Shown: in pieces, positions 11,826 to 57,685 of the stretch
How positions within the stretch are numbered: position 1 is the first letter of the stretch
Layout: the number at the start of each line of letters is the position of its first letter
The notes under the pieces: generated by a model
What the model was told of the DNA's origin: nothing
Database searches by the model: none
Seen by the model: the letters and a program-made list of their open reading frames with translations, nothing else
Program-made: the position numbers and the translations under genes
Assembly: GCA_015231925.1 (NCBI GenBank)
Contig: JADGAQ010000001.1
Span: 18,728-82,727 of the forward strand
DNA: 64,000 nt
Reading direction: 5' to 3'
Source: Magnetococcales bacterium
GTDB lineage: Bacteria > Pseudomonadota > Magnetococcia > Magnetococcales > JADGAQ01

Positions 11826-12204
11826 TCAAAAGAAAGCATAATCAATCCGTTCCAGGAAATGAATATCGCTGAAACAAACCCTCAAAATCATCTCCAGTCT
11901 GTCGCGCATCAACGACAACCACAAAGAATGCTCCGCACCGTCATCATAATGCTCAAACGCCGATCCGGTATTATAGGGCGGATCGATGAACACACACTTC
12001 ACCTTGCCGGCGAACTCCTGCTCCAAGGCCTTCAAGGCCAGCAGGGTGTTCCCGAAGATCAGCCGGTTATCGTAAAGGTCCCCTGCGGTCCCCGGTGGCG
12101 GGCATGGTGGGATTTCGTCGCATCTTCCAGCAGAATGCGCGGCTCCGTCGAGGGCGGTACTCCTTGCCGATCCAGGTGAGTTCGAGTTTTGGCTTGTTGT
12201 TCAT
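11826..12204 (-). pseudogene. N6-adenine (DPPY-type) DNA methyltransferase, N-terminal remnant with at least two frameshifts and a 3' truncation
   Basis: The minus strand from ATG 12204..12202 reads MNNKPKLELTWIGKEY. A second frame then reads ..EPRILLED... A third frame reads GDLYDNRLIFGNTLLALKALEQEFAGKVKCVFIDPPYNTGSAFEHYDDGAEHSLWLSLMRDRLEMI and stops at 11826. DPPY is methyltransferase motif IV. Only about 125 codons remain of what is normally a far longer protein. Confidence 0.75.
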
Positions 12205-12809
12205 TGAGAGGAGTCTTTCGTTTGCGGTATGGCATTACGGGATTTATTGACTTTATTAACAACTTGAGACAAAAAACCGACTCGCCATGAATATGCTTCT
12301 GCAAGACCTTGTTCACTAATGGTTAATATATGAGGATTGATCGCTGCCTCGAAGTTTTCTAGCCACCAGTGGTCAATTTTGTGAATAAGGCTCAAGATGG
12401 CTTCTATGTGGCCGATCTCGATCATGGGGGTATGGTCATTAATAAGAATTCGTGTTATCCTATGGGCAATCTCGTTGCGATATTTGCGAAGCTCCTGGAT
12501 TAAGTCTGTTTCTTCATCTGATAGTACTTCCCATTCTTTCCATTGCGCTAATTGCATTTCGAATTGTTTCGTCCCAGAGAACAAATGTGTGTATTTTTCT
12601 TGAACTTTGAACTCAATCTGTCCTGATTCAGAAGATATATCAGAAAAGAAGGTTTCCAAATGCTCGCGTATTGCTGTCTGCAACATTTCCCACGCCAGAA
12701 GATAAAGTCCCGCGAGTTGAATTTGTTGCTCCAGACAACCGTCATCATCTAGAAGAAAGCGGCGCAGTTTATTAAGAGGTTCTTCCGAATCAGACATTAT
12801 CGAGTCCAT
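12201..12809 (-). CDS. HEPN-like (Rx4H) protein, candidate Abi/toxin-type RNase
   Basis: This is a 202-aa ORF in AT-rich DNA with atypical codon usage. It contains ..IQELRKYRNEIAHRITRIL.., where R-N-E-I-A-H is the Rx4H HEPN catalytic motif in the RNxxAH form seen in Abi_2-type proteins. Its TGA overlaps the ATG of the methyltransferase remnant (ATGA at 12201-12204). A TATAAT box on the minus strand (plus-strand 12838-12843) lies about 30 nt upstream of its ATG. Confidence 0.6.
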   Translation of the reverse strand: MDSIMSDSEEPLNKLRRFLLDDDGCLEQQIQLAGLYLLAWEMLQTAIREHLETFFSDISSESGQIEFKVQEKYTHLFSGTKQFEMQLAQWKEWEVLSDEETDLIQELRKYRNEIAHRITRILINDHTPMIEIGHIEAILSLIHKIDHWWLENFEAAINPHILTISEQGLAEAYSWRVGFLSQVVNKVNKSRNAIPQTKDSSQ

Positions 12810-17000: not shown

Positions 17001-17616
17001 CACCGGTTCCCTGCGGGAGAGGCTCCTGCCCGGCGAGGCTCAGGCCGAAGGGGCGGCCCTGGCCACGACGCTTCAGACCGGCATCGCCGGCCTGGTCATC
17101 GAACGCAAGCTGCACAAGACCCGCAAGGGGGATCGCATGGCCTTCATCACCGTGGAGGACATGGACGGGCAGATCGAGGTGGTGATTTTTCCGGAGGTCT
17201 TCGAGGCCTGCCGGGGGTTGCTGGAAAGCGATGCGGTGGTGGTGGTGGAAGGGGTGGCCGAAGCCGGGGAAGATGCGGTCAAGATGGTGGCGGAGCGGGT
17301 GCAGCCGCTGCAAACCTTTCGCAAGGATCGGGCGCGTTGTCTGATTCTCTCCCTGAACGAAGAGGAGGTGCAGGCAGTGCGTCTGGAGCGCCTGCGCATG
17401 GCCTGGCAACCCTTTCAGGGGGGGGCCTGCCAGATTTTTCTGAAAGTCCGCTTCGAGGTGGCCCACGGCTGGTACAAACTGGGCGAGGCGTGCCGGGTTC
17501 AGCCCGAAGAGGCGTTGCTGACTGCTTTGATCGATGAACTGGGTTCCGGGCGCGCCCTGTTTCGTGGTAGTTTGCCTGCGGATTTGGAAGCCGAATATTC
17601 TCTCAGAAACGGGTAA
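14038..17616 (+). CDS. dnaE: DNA polymerase III alpha subunit
   Basis: The N-terminus from ATG 14038 is canonical (MAHARFVHLHVHTCYSLL, PHP domain). The polymerase core follows (PDFDVDF, GRGSGAGSLVAY, GLVKFDFLGL), then an OB-fold C-terminus. The track start 13957 would begin 8 nt after the tRNA and is rejected. Confidence 0.95.
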   Translation: MAHARFVHLHVHTCYSLLKSTVRIESLIERAKSWRMPALAIADQGNLFAAIAFYTQCLKSGIKPLMGAQILVVPDRLEKRSRHDREVRDQLVLLCRNQTGWRNLLAILSIGYNEGMHGAPRVDAKVLDAHSEGLIVLSGGLKGEVARHLLAGHADEAREAAMRWATCFAGRDNQPNFYMEIQRHGLPGEEGVNARLVALAQELDLPLVATGDVHFLRREEQKAQEVLACIGLGLTLNHEERPRLDESHALLSPQEMAQRFADLPEALENTLHIARRCNLQLRLGKPMLPHYPRVPEGLKLEGYLSDLARQGLERRLAEYVCVQLPEELTEETGRAYRDRLNYELGVIVQMGFAGYFLIVSDFIRHAKHQGIPVGPGRGSGAGSLVAYALDITDLDPIEHQLLFERFLNPERVSMPDFDVDFCQDRRGEVIEYVKETYGADRVAQIITFGTLMARAVLRDVGRVMEFPYSRVDRIAKLVPPTLGITLKDALEQEDKLRQMVAEDPDVGSLVEMALILEGLPRSAGTHAAGVVISDGPLTDTVPLYRDPRSDMPVTQFNMGDAEKAGLVKFDFLGLKTLTVIDQTLKMVNATRAADEAVDVALLPMDDRPTFKLLCDGHTRGVFQLESSGMRELLRRLAPDTFADIVALVALYRPGPLGSGMVDDFINGKHGRVEVRYFLPELEPILKETYGVILYQEQVMQIARVLAGYTLGGADLLRRAMGKKKLSEMAAQRQSFLEGARNHRVPVEMATHIFELMEKFAGYGFNKSHSAAYALISYQTAWLKAHYPREFLAATLTCDMENTDKVITFVRECQSRGIPVLSPDCNRSGKGFTVEEKGIRFGLAAIKNVGEGAVDALLAARSQGGAFKDLGDLCRRSDASRLNRRVMENLIKSGACDALGPHRAALLEELPAAMGEGVRRQEAKAMGLRSLFGEEGEETVAETGPNRRKVPPWTDAVQLEAEKEALGFYITGHPLRKYAEEFASYGLESTGSLRERLLPGEAQAEGAALATTLQTGIAGLVIERKLHKTRKGDRMAFITVEDMDGQIEVVIFPEVFEACRGLLESDAVVVVEGVAEAGEDAVKMVAERVQPLQTFRKDRARCLILSLNEEEVQAVRLERLRMAWQPFQGGACQIFLKVRFEVAHGWYKLGEACRVQPEEALLTALIDELGSGRALFRGSLPADLEAEYSLRNG

Positions 17617-17622
17617 ATTGTT

Positions 17623-18600
17623 ATGTCTCGCACTTTTCTAGACTTCGAACGCCCCATTGGCGAGCTTATGGCCAAGGTGGACGAGTTGCGCGCCCTCTCT
17701 TCCAACAACTCCGAGATACAGATTACCGAAGAGTTGTCCAGTCTGGAAAAGGAGGTTGCCAATCTGACGGAGCGGATCTTCACTAAACTGACGCCCTGGG
17801 AGAAGACCCAGCTCTCCCGGCATCCGGACCGGCCCTATACCAGCGATTATCTGGACTTGATCTTTGCCGACTTCATCGAGTTGCACGGGGATCGCAACTT
17901 CGCCGATGACAAGGCCATCATCGGTGGTTTGGCCGTCCTGGACGGGCAGGAGGTCATGGTCATCGGTCAGGAGAAGGGGCGGGGCACCAAGGAGAAGGTC
18001 TATCGCAACTTCGGCATGCCCCGGCCCGAAGGCTATCACAAGGCGTTGCGCCTGATGCGCATGGCGGAGAAATTCGGCATGCCCATCATCACCTTCATCG
18101 ACACTCCCGGAGCCTATCCCGGCAAAGAGGCGGAGGAGAGGGGGCAGGCGGCGGCTATTGCCGAAAACCTCAAAGCCATGATCGACCTGAAGGTTCCGGT
18201 GATTTCGGTGGTGATCGGGGAGGGCGGCTCGGGTGGAGCCCTCGCCATCGGGGTGGGCAACCGGGTGTTGATGATGCAGTATGCCATCTATTCGGTGATC
18301 TCCCCGGAAGGATGCGCTTCCATACTGTGGAAGGACGCCGCCAAGGCGGAGTTGGCGGCGGAAGCCATGCGGCTGACCGCCGAGGAGATTCTGGAGCTGA
18401 AGGTGATCGACGGAATTGTGCCGGAACCGGTGGGTGGGGCGCATCGGGATCCGGTGAAAGCGGCGCATCTGCTGGGCCTCCATTTGAACCGCGCCCTGCG
18501 GGAGCTGCTCTACATGTCACCGGAGACTTTGGTGCGGCAGCGTTTCGAAAAATATTTTTCCATGGGCTTGATGTTGGGCGGGGGGATGGGGATCGACTGA
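17623..18600 (+). CDS. accA: acetyl-CoA carboxylase carboxyltransferase alpha subunit
   Basis: 325 aa with the motifs [28 protein letters not shown] and [12 protein letters not shown]. Confidence 0.95.
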
Positions 18601-18686
18601 GGATGGCTTGAAAATTGCTAAGATTTCTTGGTGTTTGAGGGAGTTGCAAAACTCCCGCAGCCAAGCCGGGATATATTTATAATCAT

Positions 18687-18871
18687 TTGACTTTCAATAT
18701 TTTACCTTTTAAGTGTCAAAAAAAGAAAATGTTCTATCCTTTGACTTTTTTGAGCCAAGCGCAAAACTGCGAAGTAAGGTGTTGGAGCGATCTAAATATT
18801 TTGGAAATGAAAAATCAACAGACAGAACATTTTCTTTTTTTGATATTTAAAGGATAAAATATTAAAAGTCA
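18687..18871. repeat. AT-rich long-palindrome intergenic element, copy 1 (arms separated by about 58 nt of unrelated sequence; right arm slightly degenerate)
   Basis: The left arm is TTGACTTTCAATATTTTACCTTTTAAGTGTCAAAAAAAGAAAATGTTCTATCCTTTGACTTTTTTG. The right arm is ..CAACAGACAGAACATTTTCTTTTTTTGATATTTAAAGGATAAAATATTAAAAGTCA. It lies between accA and fba. Confidence 0.85.
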
Positions 18872-18904
18872 CTCGCTTCCCGTTTGAGTTTCAGGAGGGT
18901 TATC

Positions 18905-19969
18905 ATGCCTTTGGTCTCCATGCGGCAGCTTCTCGATCATGCGGCGGAACACGGATACGGGCTCCCCGCCTTCAACGTCAATAATATGGAGCAGGTGCGC
19001 GCCATCATGCGCGCCGCCGCCGATACCGACAGCCCCGTGATTTTGCAAGCCTCCGCCGGAGCGCGCAAATACGCCGGCGAACCCTTTCTGCGTCATCAGG
19101 TGCTGGCGGCCCTGGAAGCCTATCCCGATATTCCGGTGGTGATGCATCAGGACCACGGGCAGAGCCCGGCGGTTTGCCTGGGTGCCATTCGCAGCGGCTT
19201 CACCAGCGTGATGATGGACGGCTCCCTGAAGGAAGACGGCAAAACCGCCGCCACCTATGCCTACAACGAAGAGGTCACCCGTCGGGTGGTGGAGATGTCC
19301 CACTGCCTGGGGGTCTCCGTGGAGGGCGAACTGGGGGTGCTGGGTTCCCTGGAGACCGGCAAGGCGGGGGAGGAGGACGGACACGGCGCGGAAGGCCAAT
19401 TCGGCCATGACCGCCTGCTGACGGACCCGGAAGAGGCCGCCCGTTTCGTGGCGGCCACCAAGGTCGATGCCCTGGCCATCGCCATCGGTACCTCCCACGG
19501 GGCCTACAAGTTCAGCCGCAAACCCACCGGTGACATTCTGGCCATCGACCGCATCAAGGAGATCCACGCCCGTCTGCCGGACACCCATCTGGTGATGCAC
19601 GGCTCCTCTTCCGTGCCCCAGGAGCTGCTGGCCATCATCAACGAGTTCGGCGGGGCCATTCCGGAGACCTACGGCGTGCCGGTGGAGGAGATTCAGACCG
19701 GCATTCGCCATGGGGTGCGCAAGATCAATATCGACACCGACCTGAGGCTGGCCATGACAGGAGCCATTCGTCGCGTTTTCGCCAAGGATCCCAAGGAGTT
19801 CGACCCCCGCAAGTACCTCCGTCCGGCGGAAGATGCCGCTTATGCGATCTGCAAGGCCCGGTTCGAACAGTTCGGCACCGCCGGCAACGCCTCCAAACTG
19901 CGGGTGATTCCCCTGGATGAGATGGCCAAACGTTATGCGGCGGGCACTCTGGACCCGCGGATTGCCTGA
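18905..19969 (+). CDS. fba: class II fructose-bisphosphate aldolase (long, Calvin-cycle/CbbA-like subtype)
   Basis: The start [30 protein letters not shown] at ATG 18905 is preceded by AGGAGG. HGSSSVP and a C-terminal extension typical of the roughly 355-aa subtype are present. Confidence 0.92.
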
Positions 19970-19973
19970 GACC

Positions 19974-21548
19974 ATGCCACGCCTCCTCTCCTTTCTGGCC
20001 ATTGCCGCCGTGACGGCGGCCCTCTTCGGGGGACCGTCCCAGGCCTGGGCAGCCAAGCGGGATCCCTGCCCCGTGGCTCGGGAACTGGCCCAGAAGGGCA
20101 TGGATCTCTTCGACGGACAGCAGCGGGAAAAGGGTGTCGCAGCCTTGAAGGAGGCCTACGGCCTCTGCCCCGACGATCTGGATGTGGGCTACAATCTCGG
20201 CCTGGCCCTTTTCCAGACCGATCGCCACGAAGAGGCCCGTTTCACCTGGGAAACGGTGTTGCAGAAACATCCCGAGGATCTGCGCAGCAACGCCAATCTG
20301 GCCTGGTCCTACTTCATGCTGGGGCGGGATGAGGCCGCCCATCTCAAGGCCTTCCAGCAACTGCGCAAGCATCCCGGCCAATTGTCCCTGGCCCATACCG
20401 AGGTCTACGCCCTGTTTCGCATGGGGCGCTATCTGGAGGCCTACGACTGGCTGGATCGGGCCCAGTTGGAAGGGGTGAGGGCGCAACGCTGGCGGGAGCA
20501 GGCCGTCACCTTCGTGGTGGAGGATCTGTGGCGCTCGTTTCGCGAGGGGCGTCGTCTGGAACCCATCCAGGAGGTGGTCAACAAGCTCATCGAAGAGTAT
20601 CCCCAGGAAAAGGCCTTTGTGGCCGCCAAGGACAAGCTGGTGCTGGCGGCGGTGGACCCCGAGGCGGAGGTGCCGTTCCGTCTTGACCTGCCCCACGACT
20701 CCTGGCCCAAAAGCGGCGATGTGGATGACAACCGCGAGGTGCTCGACGATTTCATCCATGCGGTGCCCCCGATGGTCAACTGGAGTCGGCGCACCGACGC
20801 CTTCGGCCTGTTCGCCGGTGTCAAACAGTATCTGCGCACCGGAGGCCATCCTTTTGGCGACCGGGACGCCTCCAATCTGCATCGCTTGTTGACCACTTGG
20901 GGCTACCTGCCCGCCGCCGACGAGCATGCCCGTCTGCGGGTTGACCGGGAGGCCACGGCGCTGAATCTGCGCCAGGATCTGGAGTGGTTGCTGACTCAGG
21001 GTCGGCTGAACCCCAACGCCATGCTGATCTTCTATTTCTCCGGACACGCCATCTCCCGGGAGGGAGCGGCTGCGGGGGAGCGGGAGGTCTGGTTGCTGCC
21101 TTTCGAGGCCCATGCCGATCAGGTCGCCACCCAGGGGGTTTCGCTGAACGCTTTCCGCAACGCCCTGGCAACCCTGCCCAATCGGGAGGTGATGGTCTTG
21201 TTGGATGTTTGCTTTGACGGCTCGCCGCGTTGTGCCGGGTCGAAAACGGTTTCCAGCGCCCCGCCACCCTCCTATTTCGATATCGGCAAACCCTGGGCCG
21301 TGGCCTCCCTGTCGGGACCGGCGAGTTCTTACGGACCGGGGCGACAGGGTGCCTTCAGCTATTTTCTGACCAAAGGCCTGCTGGGTCAGGCCGATGGCAA
21401 GGTGGACGGGCAGACGGACGGTTGGGTCGATCTGGAAGAGGCGCTTTTTTACGCCAAAGAGGCCATGGCTTCCCGCAGTTTGGGGCCGGAGCCGCAACGG
21501 CGTTCCCCGGCCCGCCTGCGTGTGACCCGAGTGGGAGGTGAACAATGA
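19974..21548 (+). CDS. secreted TPR-repeat protein with C-terminal caspase-like (peptidase C14) domain
   Basis: The start is set at ATG 19974, just after the fba stop. The signal peptide is MPRLLSFLAIAAVTAALFGGPSQAWA. TPR-like repeats follow. The caspase catalytic dyad context is present (NAMLIFYFSGHAISREG and REVMVLLDVCFDGS). Confidence 0.75.
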   Translation: MPRLLSFLAIAAVTAALFGGPSQAWAAKRDPCPVARELAQKGMDLFDGQQREKGVAALKEAYGLCPDDLDVGYNLGLALFQTDRHEEARFTWETVLQKHPEDLRSNANLAWSYFMLGRDEAAHLKAFQQLRKHPGQLSLAHTEVYALFRMGRYLEAYDWLDRAQLEGVRAQRWREQAVTFVVEDLWRSFREGRRLEPIQEVVNKLIEEYPQEKAFVAAKDKLVLAAVDPEAEVPFRLDLPHDSWPKSGDVDDNREVLDDFIHAVPPMVNWSRRTDAFGLFAGVKQYLRTGGHPFGDRDASNLHRLLTTWGYLPAADEHARLRVDREATALNLRQDLEWLLTQGRLNPNAMLIFYFSGHAISREGAAAGEREVWLLPFEAHADQVATQGVSLNAFRNALATLPNREVMVLLDVCFDGSPRCAGSKTVSSAPPPSYFDIGKPWAVASLSGPASSYGPGRQGAFSYFLTKGLLGQADGKVDGQTDGWVDLEEALFYAKEAMASRSLGPEPQRRSPARLRVTRVGGEQ

Positions 21549-22435
21549 AGCGCCTGCCTCTCCTGGGACTCGGGCTGGCCCTGTCGATGGGCGTGAGCCA
21601 GCCCGCCTGCGCTTTTCTGATGGATGAGTGGGCACCCATCGCGGCGGAAAGTGGGGACAATACCTCCCGCACTGCGTTGGAGCCGGGGGTTCCCTGGCAG
21701 GAGGGTACCAGCGGCATGCGCTTTCAGTGGATTGCCGCAGCCTGTTACGCCATGGGCAGCCACCCGCAGGTGGAGGACCGGGAGACCGACGAAGGGCCGG
21801 TTCATGAAGTGTGTGTAGACGGCTTCTGGCTGGCGGACCGGGAAGTGACGCAGGGGCAGTGGCGCAGCATCATGCGCACCAACCCCGCCATGTTCCGCAA
21901 AGGGGACGACTACCCCGTGGAGCAGGTGAGTTGGGAGGATGTGGAGGCTTTTCTCAAGCGCATCAACGGCTTGTATGAAAACCGGGCCCACTTTCGTCTG
22001 CCCCGGGAAGCGGAGTGGGAGTTCGCCTGCCGCAACGCCGGGGAACGCATGCGTTATCCCAACGGCGAGTCACCCAACCAGAGCGGCTGGTATGCCGAGA
22101 ACGCCAGCGGGGGCAGTCATCGGGCCGCCACCCTGGCGGCCAATCGCCTGGGGTTGTACGACATGGCGGGCAATGTTTGGGAATGGACCGAGGATGCCTA
22201 TTTCAGTGACGCCTACTCCCGTCATGAGCGGCAAAATCCCCTGGTGACCGGTCGATCCGTCTACCGGGTCATTCGTGGGGGTGGGTGGGGAAGTCAGGCG
22301 GCCAAGCTGCGTTGCGCCAATCGCGGGTTCGAGCTTTTTTCCGTGAAACGTTCCGATCTGGGGTTTCGCCTGGTGGTCGAAAAGGCCATCGAGAAGCCCA
22401 AGCCACCACCGGAGGTCAAGAATCTGCCCTTCTGA
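21545..22435 (+). CDS. formylglycine-generating-enzyme (FGE/SUMF1)-family domain protein, secreted
   Basis: The signal peptide is MKRLPLLGLGLALSMGVSQPACA. FGE-sulfatase signatures are present (WRLPREAEWEFACR, GLYDMAGNVWEWTED, RVIRGGGWGS, LGFRLV). Its ATG overlaps the caspase-gene stop (ATGA). Confidence 0.85.
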   Translation: MKRLPLLGLGLALSMGVSQPACAFLMDEWAPIAAESGDNTSRTALEPGVPWQEGTSGMRFQWIAAACYAMGSHPQVEDRETDEGPVHEVCVDGFWLADREVTQGQWRSIMRTNPAMFRKGDDYPVEQVSWEDVEAFLKRINGLYENRAHFRLPREAEWEFACRNAGERMRYPNGESPNQSGWYAENASGGSHRAATLAANRLGLYDMAGNVWEWTEDAYFSDAYSRHERQNPLVTGRSVYRVIRGGGWGSQAAKLRCANRGFELFSVKRSDLGFRLVVEKAIEKPKPPPEVKNLPF

Positions 22436-22447
22436 GGGAAGAATCGG

Positions 22448-22586
22448 TTGACTTTCAATATGTTCCTTTAAGTATCAAAAAAAGGAAATGTTCTGTCCTT
22501 TGACTTTTTGAAGAAATTCAAGAAAAAGTCAAAGGACAGAACATTTCCTTTTTTTGATATTTAAAAGATAAAATATTGAAAGTCAA
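22448..22586. repeat. AT-rich long-palindrome intergenic element, copy 2 (most perfect copy)
   Basis: TTGACTTTCAATATGTTCCTTTAAGTATCAAAAAAAGGAAATGTTCTGTCCTTTGACTTTTTG - aagaaattc - AAGAAAAAGTCAAAGGACAGAACATTTCCTTTTTTTGATATTTAAAAGATAAAATATTGAAAGTCAA. It sits between two convergent genes. The stop of the radical-SAM gene (22583-22585) lies inside its last motif. Confidence 0.9.
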
Positions 22587-24313
22587 AAATTTATAGTTTG
22601 AGTTTTTGTAACTTCCTGAAAATGCAAAGGATTCTCTTTCAGTAAGCGCCGGGTCAGATGCAGCCTGACCTCGGCGGACTCCGTCAGACGATGCAGCAGA
22701 TGATGGGGACTGGTGGCCGTTCGGGCCACGGCGTCGAGATCCCCCGCACACTCCTGATAAAGGCGGGGAAGACTCGGGTCAAACCCCGCCAGGGCCCGGA
22801 TCAAGGGATCCTTGTCGCGCCGGGCGGCAATCGTTTCCAGCCGCTCCTCTCCAAGCTGTCCCAGGGTTATATGGGTCGCGCCCCCCAGCACCACCTGCCC
22901 ATCCATCCGCACCATGACATCCACTTCGAAGGGATCCCTCGGCGGGATACCCCTTTCCAGGTAAGCCTCCAGTTCCAGAGAGTTGGGCAGCAGCTCCACG
23001 GGGTCGAGTCGTTCCGCCCGGCCCATGCCGTCCACCTGGGCGCTCATCCAGAAGAAGGGTAGTTGTCGGGGATGATCCGTGAGCCGGAACTGGCCCTGTT
23101 GAAACGGATAACCGATGCGATCGGGCCGGGCGGGATCCCGTCGGGCCAGGGAACTCCGGCTCTGGCTGATCCAGTACATGGCCCGGTTGCGTTCGCGCAG
23201 CTCCCGCTGCAGTCGACCCAGAACACCTTCCCGGAATACCGCCTCCGAAAAATTGAGCCGTTCCAGTCGATGCAGCAGGGCAACTTGAATCCGGGGGTCG
23301 GCGGGAACGCTGGTCAGACAATTGGCTATCCAGGCGATGGGAATGCGTTCCTGCAGTCTGCCTTCCGGGGGAGTGGGGTAAATCTCCTGATGAAAGGCAT
23401 CGCAACTGAACTGCAGCAGCAGACCGGCCGGGCGGGCTTTGCGGGGACGTTGGTTCAAGGCCTCCAGGCAGTTCCGGTAGAAAGAGACGACTTCCTCTTC
23501 ACACTTGCCCAGGGTGCCGTTGAGGATGATGGCAAAGGTGGTCACGGCGGGCAGGGTGGCGACGGCCTGCAAGAAGAGGTCGATATGGCGCTCCGCTTCG
23601 CCGCCGGAAAAGAGCAGATGCGGGGCGAAGCGGCTGGCGGCCTGAAGAATCTCCTCCGGGGGACGGGCCTGCCCTTTCAGGGTGGGGCGCCAGGCGAAGA
23701 GACAGTGACGGCAGGATTGGCGGCAGGCCAGAGTGGGCACGATGCCCGCCTTGAGGCTGGGCAGCGGTGAAAGAGAGCCCTTTTTCAAACCGTCCACCAG
23801 GGCGAGGCGTTCCCGGTCCGGACTTCCCCCAACCTGCCGTGCAATCTGTTTCTGCCGTTGACTGAGGCGTCGCAGGGCCGTTTGCTCCTCCTCCGGATGA
23901 TCCGCGGGGCAACAGGCCAGGGCCTGGGAGACGGCCTTGACCGGATCCTCTCCGCCCTGCTGCCACCAGTGCAGCACCGCCTGCCGCCGGGGATCTCCCG
24001 GAGGCTGCTCCCGCCAGAAGGTCAGATATCCCTGCAGAAAGCTGCCGTCACTGACCGCCTGGTTCATGAGGGGGCCAAGGTAGGTTTGGGAAGGGTGGGT
24101 GAAGAGACCTGCCACGGCCTGCCCGCGCCAGCGCACATGAACGAGCCGTTGCAGCTCCCGGTAGGCCTGCAGGCAGCTCAACGGATCCAGGAGGTAGGAG
24201 GGCAACTCCTCTCGACGGGCGCGATCTTCGAGGTGTTGGCTTTCCCGGTTGCACCGGGCGCGAATCCGGCGCAACTGCGCGGCAAGGTACTCCTCCGTCA
24301 GGTCCGGTTTCAT
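22583..24313 (-). CDS. atypical radical SAM-like protein (576 aa) with long N- and C-terminal extensions
   Basis: It contains GIVPTLACRQSCRHCLFAW, the CxxxCxxC cluster motif. About 45 aa later comes LLFSGGEAERH, a GGE-type SAM-binding motif. The first roughly 190 aa and last roughly 250 aa match nothing I recognise. Its ATG overlaps the stop of the upstream glycosyltransferase. Confidence 0.6.
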   Translation of the reverse strand: MKPDLTEEYLAAQLRRIRARCNRESQHLEDRARREELPSYLLDPLSCLQAYRELQRLVHVRWRGQAVAGLFTHPSQTYLGPLMNQAVSDGSFLQGYLTFWREQPPGDPRRQAVLHWWQQGGEDPVKAVSQALACCPADHPEEEQTALRRLSQRQKQIARQVGGSPDRERLALVDGLKKGSLSPLPSLKAGIVPTLACRQSCRHCLFAWRPTLKGQARPPEEILQAASRFAPHLLFSGGEAERHIDLFLQAVATLPAVTTFAIILNGTLGKCEEEVVSFYRNCLEALNQRPRKARPAGLLLQFSCDAFHQEIYPTPPEGRLQERIPIAWIANCLTSVPADPRIQVALLHRLERLNFSEAVFREGVLGRLQRELRERNRAMYWISQSRSSLARRDPARPDRIGYPFQQGQFRLTDHPRQLPFFWMSAQVDGMGRAERLDPVELLPNSLELEAYLERGIPPRDPFEVDVMVRMDGQVVLGGATHITLGQLGEERLETIAARRDKDPLIRALAGFDPSLPRLYQECAGDLDAVARTATSPHHLLHRLTESAEVRLHLTRRLLKENPLHFQEVTKTQTINF

Positions 24314-25335
24314 GGCCGTGAAGCCTCCAGGAGTCGATAGGTTCCCCAGAGCAACCCGAAAAGCAGGAAGGCCAGCACTCCGAAGAGACCGTCAAGAGGC
24401 AGAATACGCAGAGCCGGGGCCAGCAGGTGATCATGCACGACCAGAAGAGGCCTGACCTTGCGAAAAAGGAGAAGATCCAGGAGGAGCAACGGCTGCCACA
24501 GCTCCTGCCGCAGGCAGGATCCCGCCTGGTACCAGAAAGACAGGAAAGACTTCTGTCGGACTTCGTGATGAAAAAGGGCGAAAAAAGGCGCCAGAGCCCG
24601 TTTGGGGTTTCTGCCCTGGGCGCGATAGAGATCCGGTGCCCGGTGCAGAAAATCGGGGCATCCCGCCTGCCAGGCCAACTGGATCAGGGCATTGAGAACC
24701 ATGCGTCCGCTCAGACCTTCCTGTTGAAAGCGTCGTGAGGAGGTGAGCAGATGACCGGGCAGGGTGATCCACCGGCCACGCCGGGCAATACGACGGGCCA
24801 TCTCCTCGTCTTCCATGTAGGGCAGACTTTGGTCGAATGGCCCCAGTTCCCGGAAAAACCCGGTGGAAAGCAGCAGCCCTTGGTCGCCATGGATGGTTCC
24901 CGGTCGATTGCTACGGGTTTTAACCTCCCAATAACGGGGTGGTCGGCCTTTGCCGGGAATGCCGTCGAAAAGAAGCGGAAAGTGACCGGCAATGCGGTCA
25001 TGCCCCGCCAGACGTTGCGCACTCACCAGGCAGGCGATGGCCTTTTCCAGAAGGTCGTGCCGGGGCAGTCGGGAGTCGGCATGAAGAAAGAGCAGAAAAT
25101 CACTCCGGGCCGTTTCGGCTCCCCGGTTCAACTGCCGGGCCCGTCCGGGTGAGCTGGCGAGGAGTCGGCCGTTGCCCTTCCGGGCGATGGCGGCGGTGTC
25201 ATCCACGGATCCCCCGTCGACCAGGCAAATGTCGGCGCTCACCCCCGTCTGCCGATGCAGGTCTTCCAGGAGGCGGGGCAGGGCCTCGGCTTCATTCAGA
25301 ACCGGAACGATGATGGAGAGCGAGTAGGGGGACAT
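24310..25335 (-). CDS. family-2 glycosyltransferase with C-terminal membrane segment
   Basis: The start is set at MSPYSLSIIVPVLNEAEALPRLLEDL (ATG 25335). DGGSVDDT and FLHADSRLP motifs are present. The C-terminus is hydrophobic (LLLLDLLLF..GLFGVLAFLLFGLLW). The 94-codon upstream extension in the track ORF is rejected. Confidence 0.8.
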   Translation of the reverse strand: MSPYSLSIIVPVLNEAEALPRLLEDLHRQTGVSADICLVDGGSVDDTAAIARKGNGRLLASSPGRARQLNRGAETARSDFLLFLHADSRLPRHDLLEKAIACLVSAQRLAGHDRIAGHFPLLFDGIPGKGRPPRYWEVKTRSNRPGTIHGDQGLLLSTGFFRELGPFDQSLPYMEDEEMARRIARRGRWITLPGHLLTSSRRFQQEGLSGRMVLNALIQLAWQAGCPDFLHRAPDLYRAQGRNPKRALAPFFALFHHEVRQKSFLSFWYQAGSCLRQELWQPLLLLDLLLFRKVRPLLVVHDHLLAPALRILPLDGLFGVLAFLLFGLLWGTYRLLEASRP

Positions 25336-25468
25336 GGCCCTTCTTCGGGATGTAAATTCGCCCGGCAGGCGGCCTCGGGCATCGAGAGGGCATGACAAGA
25401 TGGCCCTTCTTGCCCTATTGTGACAGAAACGAGGGGGCCTCCTCCAGGAAAAGGGCGCGTGGTCGAAA

Positions 25469-25873
25469 ATGGTACAGGCCAAGGTGTTCGTTGTCATCGT
25501 CGGGCTGTTGGCTTTCATGGGTTCGCCGGGAGCGGCGGAGAGCCCATACGGCCAGTTGGTGGTATTCGAGAATCCGGGTTGCGGTACCTGTCTCCTCTTC
25601 GAAAAGGAGATCGGCAAAGCTTACCCGCGCACCGAGTTGGGACAGGAATTGCCACTGGTGCGGGTGAATACCTTTTCGGTACCGGAGGAGTGGACGCCGT
25701 TGGCGCAGACAGTCTGCTTCACGCCGACGTTTTTGATCCTCGACCGGGAGGGACAGGTGCGGGGGCGCTGGATCGGCTATCGTGGCGACGAGTTCTTCTG
25801 GAGCAATCTGGAAAAAGAGGTGGCTCTGTTGCGTCGGGAACAGCGGCGGGGTGAATCGGTACTGGCCCGCTGA
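25469..25873 (+). CDS. secreted thioredoxin-fold protein (CxxC)
   Basis: 134 aa. The signal peptide is VFVVIVGLLAFMGSPGAAES. A VVFENPGCGTCLLFEKEIG motif and a cis-Pro-type segment (FTPTFLILD) are present. Confidence 0.6.
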   Translation: MVQAKVFVVIVGLLAFMGSPGAAESPYGQLVVFENPGCGTCLLFEKEIGKAYPRTELGQELPLVRVNTFSVPEEWTPLAQTVCFTPTFLILDREGQVRGRWIGYRGDEFFWSNLEKEVALLRREQRRGESVLAR

Positions 25874-26833: not shown

Positions 26834-28843
26834 ATGCGGTTTCATAACCCAGGGAAGGGGCTGCGGACCAGATGCCTGGCCGCGCTGGCAGGGGTGGGGC
26901 TCTGGATGACCCCGCTGTGCGGCTGGTCGGAAGAGGCCGATCTGGCCAAATTTCGGGAGCTGTTTACCGAATTGGAACAGGCGGACACCCTGGGCAGCGT
27001 GCTGAACCGGGAAAACTGGCCGGCGGATGATCATCTGCGCTCCTATCTGGAACTGGAGCTGCTTTTCCACCCCCGGTATCAGGTCACTTTTGCCCGATTG
27101 TGGGATTTCTTCCGGCGCTGGCCGGATCATCCCCACATGGATCGGGTGGCCAAGGTGATGACCCCGAAGATCCTCAAAGAAGGCAGCCAGGAGGTCTTCA
27201 TGGCTTGGTTCAAGGTGCGGGAGATGCCGGAGGAAGATATCCGCAGCCGGTACCTGAAAGGGTTGATTCAGGCCAACCGCCGCCAGGAGGCCGTTCCCCT
27301 GCTGAAACAGATGTATCGCTTGGGGGACGAGTCCCTGGGCAGCGCCTTCAACTGGCTGGGCAGCGCCGCACCCACCCTGGTTCGCGAAGATCACGAAGTA
27401 CGCGCCCGCGCGTTGGTGGACAAGGGCAACTGGAAAGAGTTTCTGGAGGTGACCGCCCAACTTCCCGAGAGTTTTCGGTCCTATCTGAGGGCGCTGGATG
27501 CCGCCAAACGGGCCGATAAGAGCTTTGAGGAGCGATTCCAGGATCTGACGGAGGAGGACAAACGCTCCCCGGAGCTGTGGAAGGAGCGTATCGACGGTCT
27601 GCGCCGCAAGGGCTTGCGGGAGCGGGCCACCATCCTGTTGACCGGAGCGGAGGGCAAGTTCCTCAATCAGGCGGATCGCCTCATGCTGCGTTTTCGCATC
27701 GGTCGGGACCTAGTGGAGGAGCGATCCTTCGAAAGGGGGTTGACCCTGCTGAAGGCCAATATCGAGGAAGCCGGGGGCAAACTCGACGAGTCGGCTTGGC
27801 TGGCGGGTTGGTCCTCCCTGAAATTGGGGCGGCGTCAGGATGCCCTGGAGATTTTAAGCCGTCTGGGCGCGGACGGACAAAATCCGTTGCTGCGCTCACA
27901 GGGGGCCTATTGGGCCTCGCGCATTCTGCGGGTGGAAGGTCGGGATCCGCTGCCCATGCTCAATCTGGCGGCCCAGTTGCCCGATACCTTCTATGGCCAG
28001 TTGGCCATGGAGGAGCGGGATGGTCAACCTCCCAGTCTGTCGGGTTCCACCGCACTGCCCTGTCGCTCACTGGAGGGCATTCCCGGACTGGAAAGCGGAT
28101 TGCGCCGTCTGGAACGGCTGCAAGCCGTGCGACGCTCCTTCTATAATCGGGAGGAGATTCCCTGGCTGGCCAAGCGACACAATCTGACGGTCATCGATCA
28201 GCTATGCCTCACGGAACGCTATGGTGCGCCCGATCAGGCCATTCGTCTGGCCGAGCCGCGTCGCAAGGAGGGGGAAATTCTCTGGCGCGGGCTCTATCCC
28301 ATTCCCCCCTGGACACCGATCGGGGGCTGGACCTTGGACCCACCGTTGGTGTGGGGCGTCGGTCGGCAGGAGAGCCTCTTCTTCCATCGGGTGGAATCCT
28401 CCGCCGGAGCGCGCGGCATTCTGCAACTGATGCCGGCAACCGCTCTGGAAGAGTCCCGCATCCTGGGCATGTCCGCTGCCAACAAACACCGGCTGCAATT
28501 TCCCTCTTACAACATGGCTCTGGGTCAGTCCTACCTGAAACGCCAGTTGGGCGTGGTCAAAGGGGATCTGGTGCAGGCTCTGGTATCGTACAACGCCGGG
28601 CCACGGCGGGCCAAACAGTGGGAGGAGACGCGCCGCACCACCGACCCGATACTCTATATCGAGGAGATTCCCATCGCCGAAACCCGGGAATACGTCAAAC
28701 GGGTCATTCGCGGCTTCGTTTTCTATCGCATGATGTTGGGCAAGCCCATCTCCATTCGCAACCTGATCGCGCCGGGAAAACCCGGTGTGGAGGCCTTGCT
28801 GGCCTCGGACAGCTATCGCTTCGATTTCCAGCCGACCAAATGA
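26834..28843 (+). CDS. slt: soluble lytic murein transglycosylase (Slt70-like)
   Basis: 669 aa with a signal peptide and a long superhelical N-terminal region. The C-terminal SLT domain is present (VWGVGRQESLFFHRVESSAGARGILQLMPATA, SYNAGP). Confidence 0.85.
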   Translation: MRFHNPGKGLRTRCLAALAGVGLWMTPLCGWSEEADLAKFRELFTELEQADTLGSVLNRENWPADDHLRSYLELELLFHPRYQVTFARLWDFFRRWPDHPHMDRVAKVMTPKILKEGSQEVFMAWFKVREMPEEDIRSRYLKGLIQANRRQEAVPLLKQMYRLGDESLGSAFNWLGSAAPTLVREDHEVRARALVDKGNWKEFLEVTAQLPESFRSYLRALDAAKRADKSFEERFQDLTEEDKRSPELWKERIDGLRRKGLRERATILLTGAEGKFLNQADRLMLRFRIGRDLVEERSFERGLTLLKANIEEAGGKLDESAWLAGWSSLKLGRRQDALEILSRLGADGQNPLLRSQGAYWASRILRVEGRDPLPMLNLAAQLPDTFYGQLAMEERDGQPPSLSGSTALPCRSLEGIPGLESGLRRLERLQAVRRSFYNREEIPWLAKRHNLTVIDQLCLTERYGAPDQAIRLAEPRRKEGEILWRGLYPIPPWTPIGGWTLDPPLVWGVGRQESLFFHRVESSAGARGILQLMPATALEESRILGMSAANKHRLQFPSYNMALGQSYLKRQLGVVKGDLVQALVSYNAGPRRAKQWEETRRTTDPILYIEEIPIAETREYVKRVIRGFVFYRMMLGKPISIRNLIAPGKPGVEALLASDSYRFDFQPTK

Positions 28844-42330: not shown

Positions 42331-42496
42331 TTTTATATTTTCAATATTTTGTCTTTTAAGTATCAAAAAAAGAAAATGTTCTGTCTTTTGACTTGTTTAT
42401 TGATTCTATGAAAATTTATTAAATGTATTATTATAAAATAAAAAGTCAAAACATTTTCTTTTTTTGATACTTTAAAGGAAACATGTTGAAAGGCAA
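42331..42496. repeat. AT-rich long-palindrome intergenic element, copy 3 (outer ends degenerate, 7-nt deletion in right arm)
   Basis: The left arm reads ..TTTCAATATTTTGTCTTTTAAGTATCAAAAAAAGAAAATGTTCTGTCTTTTGACTTG. An AT-rich centre follows. The right arm reads AAAAGTCAAAACATTTTCTTTTTTTGATACTTTAAAGGAAACATGTTGAAAGGCAA. It lies between convergent apaH and the DUF790-like gene. Confidence 0.8.
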
Positions 42497-57534: not shown

Positions 57535-57685
57535 TTGACGTTTAATATTTAGTCTTTAAAAAATCAAAAAAAGAAAATGTTCTGTCCTTTGACTTTTTTG
57601 TACTTTAATAATATCTTTTAAAGAAAAGTCAAAGGACAGAACATTTTCTTTTTTTGATTTTTTAAAGGATTAAAATATTAAAAAG
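57535..57685. repeat. AT-rich long-palindrome intergenic element, copy 4
   Basis: TTGACGTTTAATATTTAGTCTTTAAAAAATCAAAAAAAGAAAATGTTCTGTCCTTTGACTTTTTTG - centre - AAGAAAAGTCAAAGGACAGAACATTTTCTTTTTTTGATTTTTTAAAGGATTAAAATATTAAAAAG. It lies between the ROK kinase and the MBL-fold gene. Confidence 0.85.

Follow-up and report, generated by a model that had tools for sequence, protein, structure and literature searches.

The two genes described here, which we call A and B, lie side by side on the forward strand of a 64,000-nt stretch of DNA from a Magnetococcales bacterium (contig JADGAQ010000001.1 of the metagenome-assembled genome GCA_015231925.1; the whole stretch is referred to as the window). Gene A encodes a predicted secreted protein with tetratricopeptide repeats (TPR) and a caspase fold. 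Gene B encodes a predicted secreted, stand-alone protein with the fold of the formylglycine-generating enzyme (FGE) (Table 1). We found that the two genes overlap by the four nucleotides ATGA (21545-21548), as a first-pass annotation of the window had reported, and that a Shine-Dalgarno-like sequence, GGGAGGT, lies within gene A at 21533-21539, 5 nt 5' of the ATG of B. The length of A, 524 amino acids (aa), was counted from the ATG at 19974. An alternative in-frame ATG at 19917 would run into the upstream gene, fba. The start at 19974 is supported by the NCBI-derived protein P0001 ("caspase family protein [Magnetococcales bacterium]"), which is 100% identical to A across 524 aa. The 296-aa product of B is also 100% identical to an NCBI protein. 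Looking up the exact sequence of B retrieved no record. Both genes are real open reading frames (ORFs), with a G+C content at third codon positions (GC3) of the coding type.

Protein A consists of a signal peptide, a TPR-like region, a linker and a caspase-fold domain, in that order. Its N terminus reads MPR, LLSFLAIAAVTAALF and GGPSQAWA, followed by Ala after the predicted cleavage site; this signal peptide was read by eye from the sequence. TPR families in Pfam matched A at about aa 40-130, and helical-repeat-like sequence extends to approximately aa 225. Within this region Cys32 and Cys65 are invariant and two Asn residues are conserved: Asn74 is invariant family-wide and Asn108 is invariant among the aligned Magnetococcales orthologues. 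The Peptidase_C14 family (PF00656) matched aa 296-474 (E = 1.7e-9; 38.1 bits vs a cut-off of 21.4). Pfam thus confirmed the architecture given in the first-pass annotation, TPR repeats followed by a peptidase-C14 domain. An AlphaFold model of aa 225-524 (pLDDT 85, pTM 0.87) had the MALT1 paracaspase, fungal and plant metacaspases, and caspase-9 as its best Foldseek matches (E = 3e-9 to 1e-7, TM approximately 0.5-0.55). A sequence search of solved structures with A found no caspase. When A was aligned by BLASTP with the canonical secreted bacterial caspase P0120, FYFSGHA paired with FFYAGHG and LLDVCFD paired with VLDACRD. This pairing places His358 (codon 21045-21047, in IFYFSGHAI) and Cys413 (21210-21212, in LLDVCFDGS) at the positions of the catalytic dyad. 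The protein in the window has both the caspase fold and the His-Cys dyad of peptidase family C14. It also has a lineage-specific cysteine, Cys420 (21231-21233).

Protein B begins with MKR, LPLLGLGLALSMGV and SQPACA, followed by Phe after the predicted cleavage site, and has no lipobox (also read by eye). These N termini agree with the earlier statement that both products carry signal peptides, and the N termini of the orthologues are equivalent. The FGE-sulfatase family (PF03781) matched aa 68-277 of B (E = 4e-41), and the motifs from which B had been called a stand-alone FGE/SUMF1-type domain, RVIRGGGWGS and GNVWEWTED, are both present. The AlphaFold-type confidence of the model of B was high (pLDDT 89.9), with aa 21-40, a flexible segment, at 51-68. 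The closest structures in Foldseek were PvdO (TM 0.71/0.80) and TvpA, then FGEs (the human, T. curvata and S. coelicolor enzymes matched with E of approximately 1e-18 and TM 0.6-0.65). By sequence, the closest solved relatives were TvpA (the best PDB match) and PorK, then true FGEs.

We found that B lacks the catalytic residues of FGE. Public records label B "formylglycine-generating enzyme family protein". We compared it with the C-terminal 134 residues of human FGE, a fragment that was verified to be 100% identical to PDB 1Y1E. In the BLASTP alignment, Cys336 of human FGE falls in a 3-residue deletion in B, Cys341 is replaced by Ala, and the structural Cys346 is kept as Cys257. In FGE structures Cys346 pairs with Cys235, and the counterpart of Cys235 would be Cys162 of B. 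None of 53 B orthologues has a Cys in the loop, and four other Cys are invariant. The five residues that follow the loop Trp differ among the orthologues, and the domain varies most in this former active-site loop. The catalytic, copper-binding Cys pair, which the first-pass annotation had listed among the points to check, is absent from B and from its 53 orthologues. B is therefore not a formylglycine-generating enzyme in the strict sense: it has the FGE fold and lacks the Cys pair. None of the six reading frames of the 64-kb window contained the PROSITE sulfatase signature (PS00523), in keeping with the earlier remark that no sulfatase is encoded there.

Several more specific identities for B were considered and rejected. 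No NCBIfam family with the FGE fold, EgtB included, was matched by B above its curated cut-off; the values were 99.6 bits vs a cut-off of 350 for GldK (TIGR03525) and 66.4 bits (2e-18) vs a cut-off of 500 for PvdO (NF051459). Because it is far under these cut-offs, has no lipobox and lies in the wrong context, B is not an orthologue of PorK/GldK or PvdO. The match to TvpA raised the possibility that B is the target of a diversity-generating retroelement (DGR). We rejected this because reverse-transcriptase motifs and template repeats are absent from the window (none of the ORFs >200 aa contains YxDD, and no segment of gene B over 28 nt is repeated), and because B is under purifying selection. 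We also rejected the idea that B converts Cys413 of A to formylglycine. The sequence around Cys413 is CFDGSPRC in the window and CFNxxxxC in orthologues, with no CxPxR context, and B is without the catalytic Cys pair.

Table 1. Features of the A-B locus and its immediate flanks (positions in the window)
Feature	Position	Strand	Basis or remarks
Gene A, predicted secreted TPR + caspase-fold (orthocaspase-type) protein, 524 aa	19974-21548	+	Pfam, identity to P0001, AlphaFold, Foldseek
Predicted Sec signal peptide of A, aa 1-26, cleavage after AWA	19974-20051	+	Read by eye; equivalent orthologue N termini
TPR-like helical region of A, aa 27-225 (Cys32, Cys65, Asn74, Asn108); proposed docking site for B	20052-20648	+	TPR matches, invariant columns
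Caspase-fold domain of A, aa 271-505	20784-21488	+	Pfam, alignment to P0120, AlphaFold model, Foldseek
Coupling junction	21533-21548	+	Shine-Dalgarno-like GGGAGGT in the final codons of A (...GGE tail), then ATGA stop/start overlap
Gene B, predicted secreted stand-alone FGE-fold (C-type-lectin-like) protein, 296 aa	21545-22435	+	PF03781, NCBIfam, model, Foldseek
Predicted Sec signal peptide of B, aa 1-23, cleavage after ACA, without lipobox	21545-21613	+	Read by eye; orthologue N termini
Predicted mature N-terminal motif of B, FLMDEWAP; proposed linear docking peptide	21614-21637	+	Conservation, low pLDDT
Degenerate FGE active-site loop of B, RGGGWGSQAAKLRCANRG	22274-22327	+	BLASTP vs human FGE; alignment of 53 orthologues
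fba, class II fructose-bisphosphate aldolase	18884-19969	+	ORF; stops 4 nt before gene A
AT-rich palindromic intergenic element, copy 1	18688-18871		Upstream of fba
AT-rich palindromic intergenic element, copy 2	22448-22586		Between B and the convergent radical-SAM-like gene

We found that the pairing of A and B is fixed across the Magnetococcales. Scanning a single genome for each GTDB species yielded 33 Magnetococcales loci and one remote, caspase-only match. B lies directly after A in all 31 scanned loci that have downstream sequence; two contigs stop earlier. We compared the junctions in 33 loci with both genes, including the window and the complete genome of Magnetococcus marinus MC-1. 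The gap from the stop of A to the start of B was 0 nt in 20 loci, -4 in eight, -1 in four and +2 in one. A Shine-Dalgarno-like motif was present in the final codons of A in 32/33 loci. The C-terminal GGE of A is conserved because it is encoded by the Shine-Dalgarno sequence of B, and this tail is largely absent in A homologues whose partner gene does not abut. At 21513-21545 a single stretch of DNA is constrained both as protein and as ribosome-binding site in 32/33 loci. The gene upstream of A is fba (approximately 22/33 loci), accA or dnaE, and dnaE-accA-fba-A-B occupies one syntenic core position order-wide. M. marinus MC-1 has the same arrangement, with 3 nt between fba and A and an fba product that matches PF01116. 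Its locus (L035, CP000471.1, 1474-5135) also carries a DUF4276 and AAA_15/AAA_21 ATPase pair and a DDE_5 transposase between accA and fba, the sole break seen in accA-fba-A-B synteny. The linkage of A to B is kept throughout the order and, as described below, beyond it.

Relatives of A outside the order are also accompanied by FGE-fold proteins. The notion that A is confined to Magnetococcales holds for close orthologues only; full-length relatives occur elsewhere, e.g., in Maridesulfovibrio frigidus. An exhaustive HMMER search with the caspase domain of A returned 5740 relatives, and a word-indexed search with the caspase domain alone returned only one protein. Closest to A, apart from its orthologues, is a group of secreted proteins 500-520 aa long that align with A over the full length at 29-39% identity. 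Four of four distant full-length TPR-caspases that we looked up adjoin FGE-fold genes. At L036, the FGE gene begins right after the stop codon of the TPR-caspase gene. There are four tandem FGE-fold paralogues at L041, one FGE gene at L043, and two at L044/L045, where the TPR-caspase is WP_031480107.1 of M. frigidus. In a scan of metagenomes, an FGE gene lay on the same strand within approximately 2 kb in 10/14 loci with a full-length-type relative vs 1/64 loci with a caspase-domain-only relative (Fisher p = 8e-9). Clusters that fit the definition of a TPR-orthocaspase with an FGE-fold protein are L036, L041, L043, L044/45, L048, L050-L053, L055-L057, L069 and L077, together with 33/33 Magnetococcales loci. 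A and B are not simply the two halves of the common caspase-FGE fusion. The caspase domain of A shows no more than remote similarity to its counterpart in the fusions (E = 3e-4), and FGE-sulfatase was not among the 25 commonest Pfam families of the 75 nearest caspase relatives of A.

Many of the outside clusters contain a third gene. A gene for a secreted protein of 333-365 aa was found in seven metagenome clusters (L048, L050-L054 and L056), in L043 (2414-3415) and in L044/L045 (L044, 6570-7667). It is next to the TPR-caspase gene or a short distance downstream of it. In the two copies that were scanned, the product had a FlgO-like N-terminal domain (PF17680), and the L044 copy added a weak DUF4384 match. 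At L041 (357-4507 and 8963-11566), the four FGE paralogues and the TPR-caspase gene are accompanied by a DUF4062-NACHT (STAND) gene 2.4 kb off. No reverse transcriptase was found in the 11.5 kb that make up L041. Two further loci (L039, 3056-5825; L040, 2820-7206) encode stand-alone FGE-fold proteins that are approximately 45% identical to B. They are without the N-terminal motif described next; at L039 they come straight after a guanylate-cyclase-TPR protein, and at L040 there are TPR proteins on both sides. This arrangement hints that the TPR/FGE-fold partnership is wider and includes other output domains.

We found that the predicted mature N terminus of B carries a motif specific to the partners of TPR-caspases. 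The Magnetococcales consensus is (F/Y)LINEWEP, and its Trp29 is present in 53/53 orthologues. The motif (I/L)(N/D)xEW (NEW motif) was present in 19-22 of 27 Magnetococcales B proteins vs 1-2 of 84 close FGE homologues that are not partnered with a TPR-caspase. Outside the order the motif occurs in only part of the partners (L043, L048, L051-L053, L056a, L069 and L077). The FGE partner at L043 starts with YLVDEWEP, SMINEWWLWEEE is found in L051, L052, L056, L069 and L077, and the partners at L048 and L053 have ...IDLEWRPI and ...LNLEWRPI a few residues in. The L041 partners have the variant YFIEGF(D/E)P. The four L041 paralogues are near-identical over their N-terminal approximately 100 residues and divergent in the C-terminal half, including the RGGSW loop, so that the array looks like a set of specificity variants. 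TPR domains typically bind extended peptides through conserved asparagines in their groove. We propose that the N-terminal peptide of B is a candidate tether to the TPR groove of A.

We found that the catalytic His of A has been lost repeatedly. An alignment of 60 A orthologues was made from the 33 genomic loci and database proteins. The dyad His position held His in 24 of these, Leu in 31, Trp in three, Gln in one and Arg in one. Gly357, Cys413 and Cys420, which is seven residues past Cys413, were kept in 60/60. The first-pass description of the dyad as intact is correct for the protein in the window, but it does not extend to most of the orthologues. In a neighbor-joining tree the His-bearing proteins fall into a single group of clades, which includes those of the window, of Magnetofaba australis IT-1 and of M. 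massalia MO-1, and parsimony gave at least five changes at the His position. The distant full-length homologues all retain FYFSGHG and DACFSGxG(K/R)S, and a counterpart of Cys420 was missing in 15/16 outgroup homologues. The genes without His are not decaying. In the Leu and Trp clades, dN/dS was 0.07-0.21 for A and 0.09-0.19 for B (approximately 0.045 for fba), indicating that they are under purifying selection. Because the catalytic His has been lost in approximately 60% of the orthologues, proteolysis is not the conserved function of A.

The cysteines of the two proteins are more constant. Mature A has exactly four Cys (32, 65, 413 and 420) in 44/54 orthologues and six in nine others, and mature B has four in 53/53. 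In an apparently exported A, the four-Cys pattern suggests two consecutive disulfides, with Cys413 tied to Cys420. There is thus the possibility that the nucleophile, Cys413, is locked by a disulfide with the invariant Cys420.

Based on these results we suggest, with moderate confidence, that A and B are two subunits of a periplasmic module, where B, without being an enzyme, provides recognition and docks on the TPR domain of A. The pair is fixed across the order and is found in unrelated bacteria, which argues for a real cell-envelope module and against a sulfatase pathway or a mobile defense island. One transcript, probably fba-A-B, would give A and B in fixed proportion through coupled translation. 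Both proteins would be exported via Sec and stabilized by disulfides. B would serve as a C-type-lectin/FGE-fold binding module, with no FGE-type enzyme activity. Its flexible N-terminal peptide, of the form ΦΦ(N/D)xEW, would dock in the TPR groove of A, and its degenerate loop would be the surface that recognizes a ligand or substrate, on the same face that DGRs vary in TvpA-type proteins. A would be a TPR-scaffolded orthocaspase. In this organism it keeps both His358 and Cys413, and it may be proteolytically active and could cleave targets recruited by B. Across the Magnetococcales, Cys413 has gained its invariant neighbor Cys420, and a disulfide between the two is probable. The repeated loss of His, together with the Cys413-Cys420 pair, suggests that the conserved job of A is binding or scaffolding in the envelope, not proteolysis.

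Several points weigh against this interpretation. The signal peptides of A and B were judged by eye. Four of the 14 full-length-type metagenome loci had no FGE gene, and most of these contigs are short. We found no homologue of the FlgO-like third gene in the window. This gene is usual outside the Magnetococcales, so the two-gene model may be incomplete. A mirror-tree comparison gave r = 0.90 between A and B and a partial r of 0.66 given fba, a value reached in 0/2000 permutations; the fba control evolves slowly and shared rate variation can inflate the partial r, and we regard this result as supportive, not decisive. Finally, NCBIfam describes PvdO as a dehydrogenase (dihydropyoverdine dehydrogenase), so an FGE-fold protein without the Cys pair can be catalytic.

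A broader picture can be drawn more tentatively, and in its entirety it is somewhat doubtful. A and B may represent a widespread and hitherto undescribed extracytoplasmic system, composed of a TPR-orthocaspase, one to four interchangeable FGE-fold "receptors" tethered by (I/L)(N/D)xEW and, outside the Magnetococcales, a FlgO-like/DUF4384 protein. In the Magnetococcales the system would have become fixed behind fba and the caspase repeatedly turned into a non-proteolytic pseudo-caspase, its nucleophile held or redox-gated by the Cys413-Cys420 disulfide.

The case of PvdO leads to an alternative in which B is an enzyme of a kind other than FGE, e.g., a PvdO-like periplasmic oxidoreductase with a small molecule or a peptide as its substrate, and A is its TPR chaperone or processing partner. 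The closest structure to B is indeed that of the periplasmic PvdO, B matches the PvdO model with a low E value, and B is under purifying selection with many invariant residues. However, its 66 bits are far from the cut-off of that model, and siderophore and secondary-metabolite genes are absent from the neighborhood. Variation within the domain is highest in the former active-site loop, which suits a binding surface better than a catalytic center, and the arrays of two to four paralogues with divergent C-terminal halves resemble specificity variants. We consider it unlikely that B is such an enzyme.

In a narrower form of the main interpretation, the pair might be an adaptor-protease that remodels the envelope. 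In the NlpI-Prc system, a TPR adaptor brings a periplasmic protease to a selected substrate, and cell-wall or outer-membrane proteins are trimmed. By analogy, B would bind a glycan or an envelope protein and the caspase would cleave it where the His is kept. Every component is apparently exported, and outgroup clusters contain the secreted FlgO-like/DUF4384 protein. The secreted caspase-FGE fusion P0120 clusters with SpoIID, SLH, DUF4384 and TPR genes. Among prokaryotic metacaspases, fusions with peptidoglycan-binding, amidase and polysaccharide-deacetylase domains are known (PMC3501461). However, no conserved cell-wall gene adjoins the pair in the Magnetococcales, and the SLT gene of the window (26834-28843) is four genes away. 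The loss of the His in most orthologues also argues against protease activity as the core function, and we find this explanation improbable.

The first-pass annotation had related the pair to predicted conflict and signaling systems. The outcomes that it had named as refuting were contradicted on both counts, by the missing FGE catalytic residues and by the conserved linkage. The parts of that proposal concerning a non-enzymatic binder and the linkage of the two genes are supported by our results; the conflict setting is not, since this copy is core-syntenic, has no NTPase partner and does not lie in a conflict island. An anti-phage or programmed-cell-death system of the caspase and FGS-domain kind would be in line with the predicted conflict systems where FGS domains are found together with caspase-like peptidases (PMC7159879; 10.1101/2023.09.22.558884), with the match of A to the generic PADLOC "caspase" model (E = 1.8e-10), and with the DUF4062-NACHT gene near the four FGE paralogues of L041. 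However, dnaE-accA-fba-A-B is at a single core position order-wide and dN/dS is 0.07-0.21. The genes flanking the pair encode no NTPase, vWA, MoxR, TIR or effector-associated domain, the window has no reverse-transcriptase motif or template repeat, and B has no PADLOC match. A and B are apparently periplasmic, whereas the described systems are largely cytoplasmic, and the effector His is lost in most lineages. A conflict system of this kind is very unlikely.

That B is a true FGE for sulfatases encoded elsewhere and is next to A incidentally, as its name in public records and its PF03781 domain might suggest, is hardly credible and was rejected, given the absence of both catalytic Cys from B and 53 orthologues, the absence of a sulfatase signature from the window, and a linkage to A that is universal and translationally coupled.

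The surroundings of the pair are those of a core-genome region. Upstream are murI, dnaE, accA and fba; downstream are a radical-SAM-like gene, a GT2 (glycosyltransferase family 2) gene, ftsY, the SLT gene and cheR/B/A. In a Pfam scan, the ten neighboring genes were housekeeping or unannotated. The coordinates agree with the first-pass description of the pair as next to fba and tail-to-tail with the radical-SAM/GT2 pair across a palindrome. Gene A is probably co-transcribed with fba. Palindrome copies 1 and 2 bracket fba, A and B, so the transcription unit is likely fba-A-B, and copy 2 is probably its 3' boundary, possibly as a terminator. A simple promoter/terminator scan of 17500-22800 gave nothing useful, with no terminator found at palindrome copy 2. 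The AT-rich palindrome (approximately 125-185 bp) is present in four copies in the window, which has approximately 60% GC; the other two are at 42353-42477 and 57545-57676. Its arms are 42-62 nt long and 85-96% complementary, and its core, GAAAATGTTCTGTCCTTTGACTTTTT, was found six times vs zero expected. It may be a REP/MITE-like element (repetitive extragenic palindrome/miniature inverted-repeat transposable element) or a bidirectional terminator.

The radical-SAM-like and GT2 genes (22583-24313 and 24310-25617, both on the reverse strand) are convergent with B beyond palindrome copy 2. The GT2 product scores 198 bits with TIGR04283 ("arsenosugar biosynthesis glycosyltransferase"), for which the NCBIfam cut-off is 182 bits. 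The GT2 gene shares 4 nt with the gene for the 576-aa radical-SAM-like protein, which has a weak, sub-cut-off radical-SAM match (E = 1e-5) and no NCBIfam match. Of the other Magnetococcales loci, only L002, L003 and L006 have the radical-SAM-like gene next to B, and of these three L003 alone has the GT2 gene. Farther upstream, a 202-aa ORF (12201-12809, reverse strand) has a GC3 of 0.40 vs approximately 0.75 in the adjacent genes and no Pfam match. It is compositionally foreign or else not a real gene.

The association of caspase and FGE-sulfatase domains has been catalogued since 2012 without a functional explanation, and FGE-like domains are now reported as bacterial immune sensors. The locus described here is a minimal form of the association, with two separate, apparently exported proteins, expression that would be stoichiometric, and a candidate docking peptide. 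It also comes with natural "mutants" in which the His is lost and the partnership kept. Because this form is minimal and clean, the role of the FGE fold for the caspase is directly testable, and the pair occurs in cultured hosts (M. marinus MC-1, Magnetofaba australis and Maridesulfovibrio frigidus). Our results also correct a systematic annotation error: B-type proteins are labeled formylglycine-generating enzymes but cannot be.

In published surveys, C14-FGE-sulfatase fusions made up 33/671 (4.9%) of the prokaryotic metacaspases counted in 2012 and were left unexplained (Asplund-Samuelsson et al. 2012, PMC3501461). Caspase-FGE fusions recur in archaeal orthocaspases (PMC6426788), and DGR-diversified orthocaspase-CLec proteins are present in cyanobacteria (PMC7517822). 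In predicted conflict systems, FGS domains repeatedly accompany caspase-like peptidases, in the role of binders without enzyme activity (Kaur et al. 2020, PMC7159879). Other known architectures join kinases to FGE or to DUF4384 (10.1101/2025.01.12.632604), and there are STAND proteins with FGE-like sensors (PMC13581612). The literature claim made in the first-pass annotation, that FGE-type domains are partners of caspase-like proteases and kinases, is accurate (PMC3501461, PMC7159879, 10.1101/2025.01.12.632604). We found no paper on the Magnetococcales pair or on periplasmic TPR-orthocaspase/FGE clusters, in a literature search of incomplete coverage. What is new here is a caspase/FGE association that is split, apparently exported and translationally coupled, with a partner-specific motif and repeated loss of the His.

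The pair is most directly comparable to the orthocaspase-FGE fusions. Both combine C14 with PF03781, B shares 48-49% identity with the FGE domains of P0106 and P0120, P0120 is secreted, and the FGE part of the fusions is regarded as a binding or specificity element. In contrast to the fusions, the domains here are on two translationally coupled proteins, A has an N-terminal TPR array, there is no DGR, and the catalytic His is dispensable in most A orthologues. The ternary VMAP/iSTAND and STAND systems likewise combine a non-enzymatic sensor or binder of the FGE/C-type-lectin fold with TPR and caspase-like domains. Unlike these, the pair is without MoxR, vWA, STAND NTPase and effector-associated domain and is apparently exported. 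In these unicellular cocci it is also syntenic, present in a single copy, passed on vertically and under purifying selection.

PvdO, TvpA and PorK/GldK, all of which we take to be extracytoplasmic, resemble B as FGE-fold proteins. PvdO (5HHA), TvpA (2Y3C) and PorK/GldK (9MZU and others) are without the Cys pair of FGE, and none is formylglycine-generating. Unlike any of PvdO, TvpA and PorK, B has a partner-specific N-terminal motif. In contrast to PorK/GldK, B is not a lipoprotein and has 296 aa vs approximately 490 aa in PorK chains. In contrast to PvdO, there are no pyoverdine genes near B and its neighbors are housekeeping genes; the resemblance is structural only. Unlike TvpA, B has no reverse-transcriptase or template-repeat signal nearby.

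Pseudo-orthocaspases, TPR-linked variants among them, are known, with Tyr-Ser, Tyr-Ala and Phe-Ser listed as the commonest dyad substitutions (Klemenčič et al. 2019, PMC6426788). Like these, most Magnetococcales A orthologues lack the catalytic His and are nevertheless conserved. In contrast, A of the window keeps its dyad, and the orthologues have Leu, Trp, Gln or Arg in place of His, an invariant Cys, and a new Cys at +7. The TPR of A is N-terminal rather than C-terminal, and A is apparently secreted and paired with an FGE-fold protein. The similarity to NlpI-Prc is by analogy only. There, too, a TPR module joins a periplasmic protease to a selected substrate, but A and B have no homology to Prc or NlpI, the TPR and the protease are fused in A, and the third element is an FGE-fold protein.

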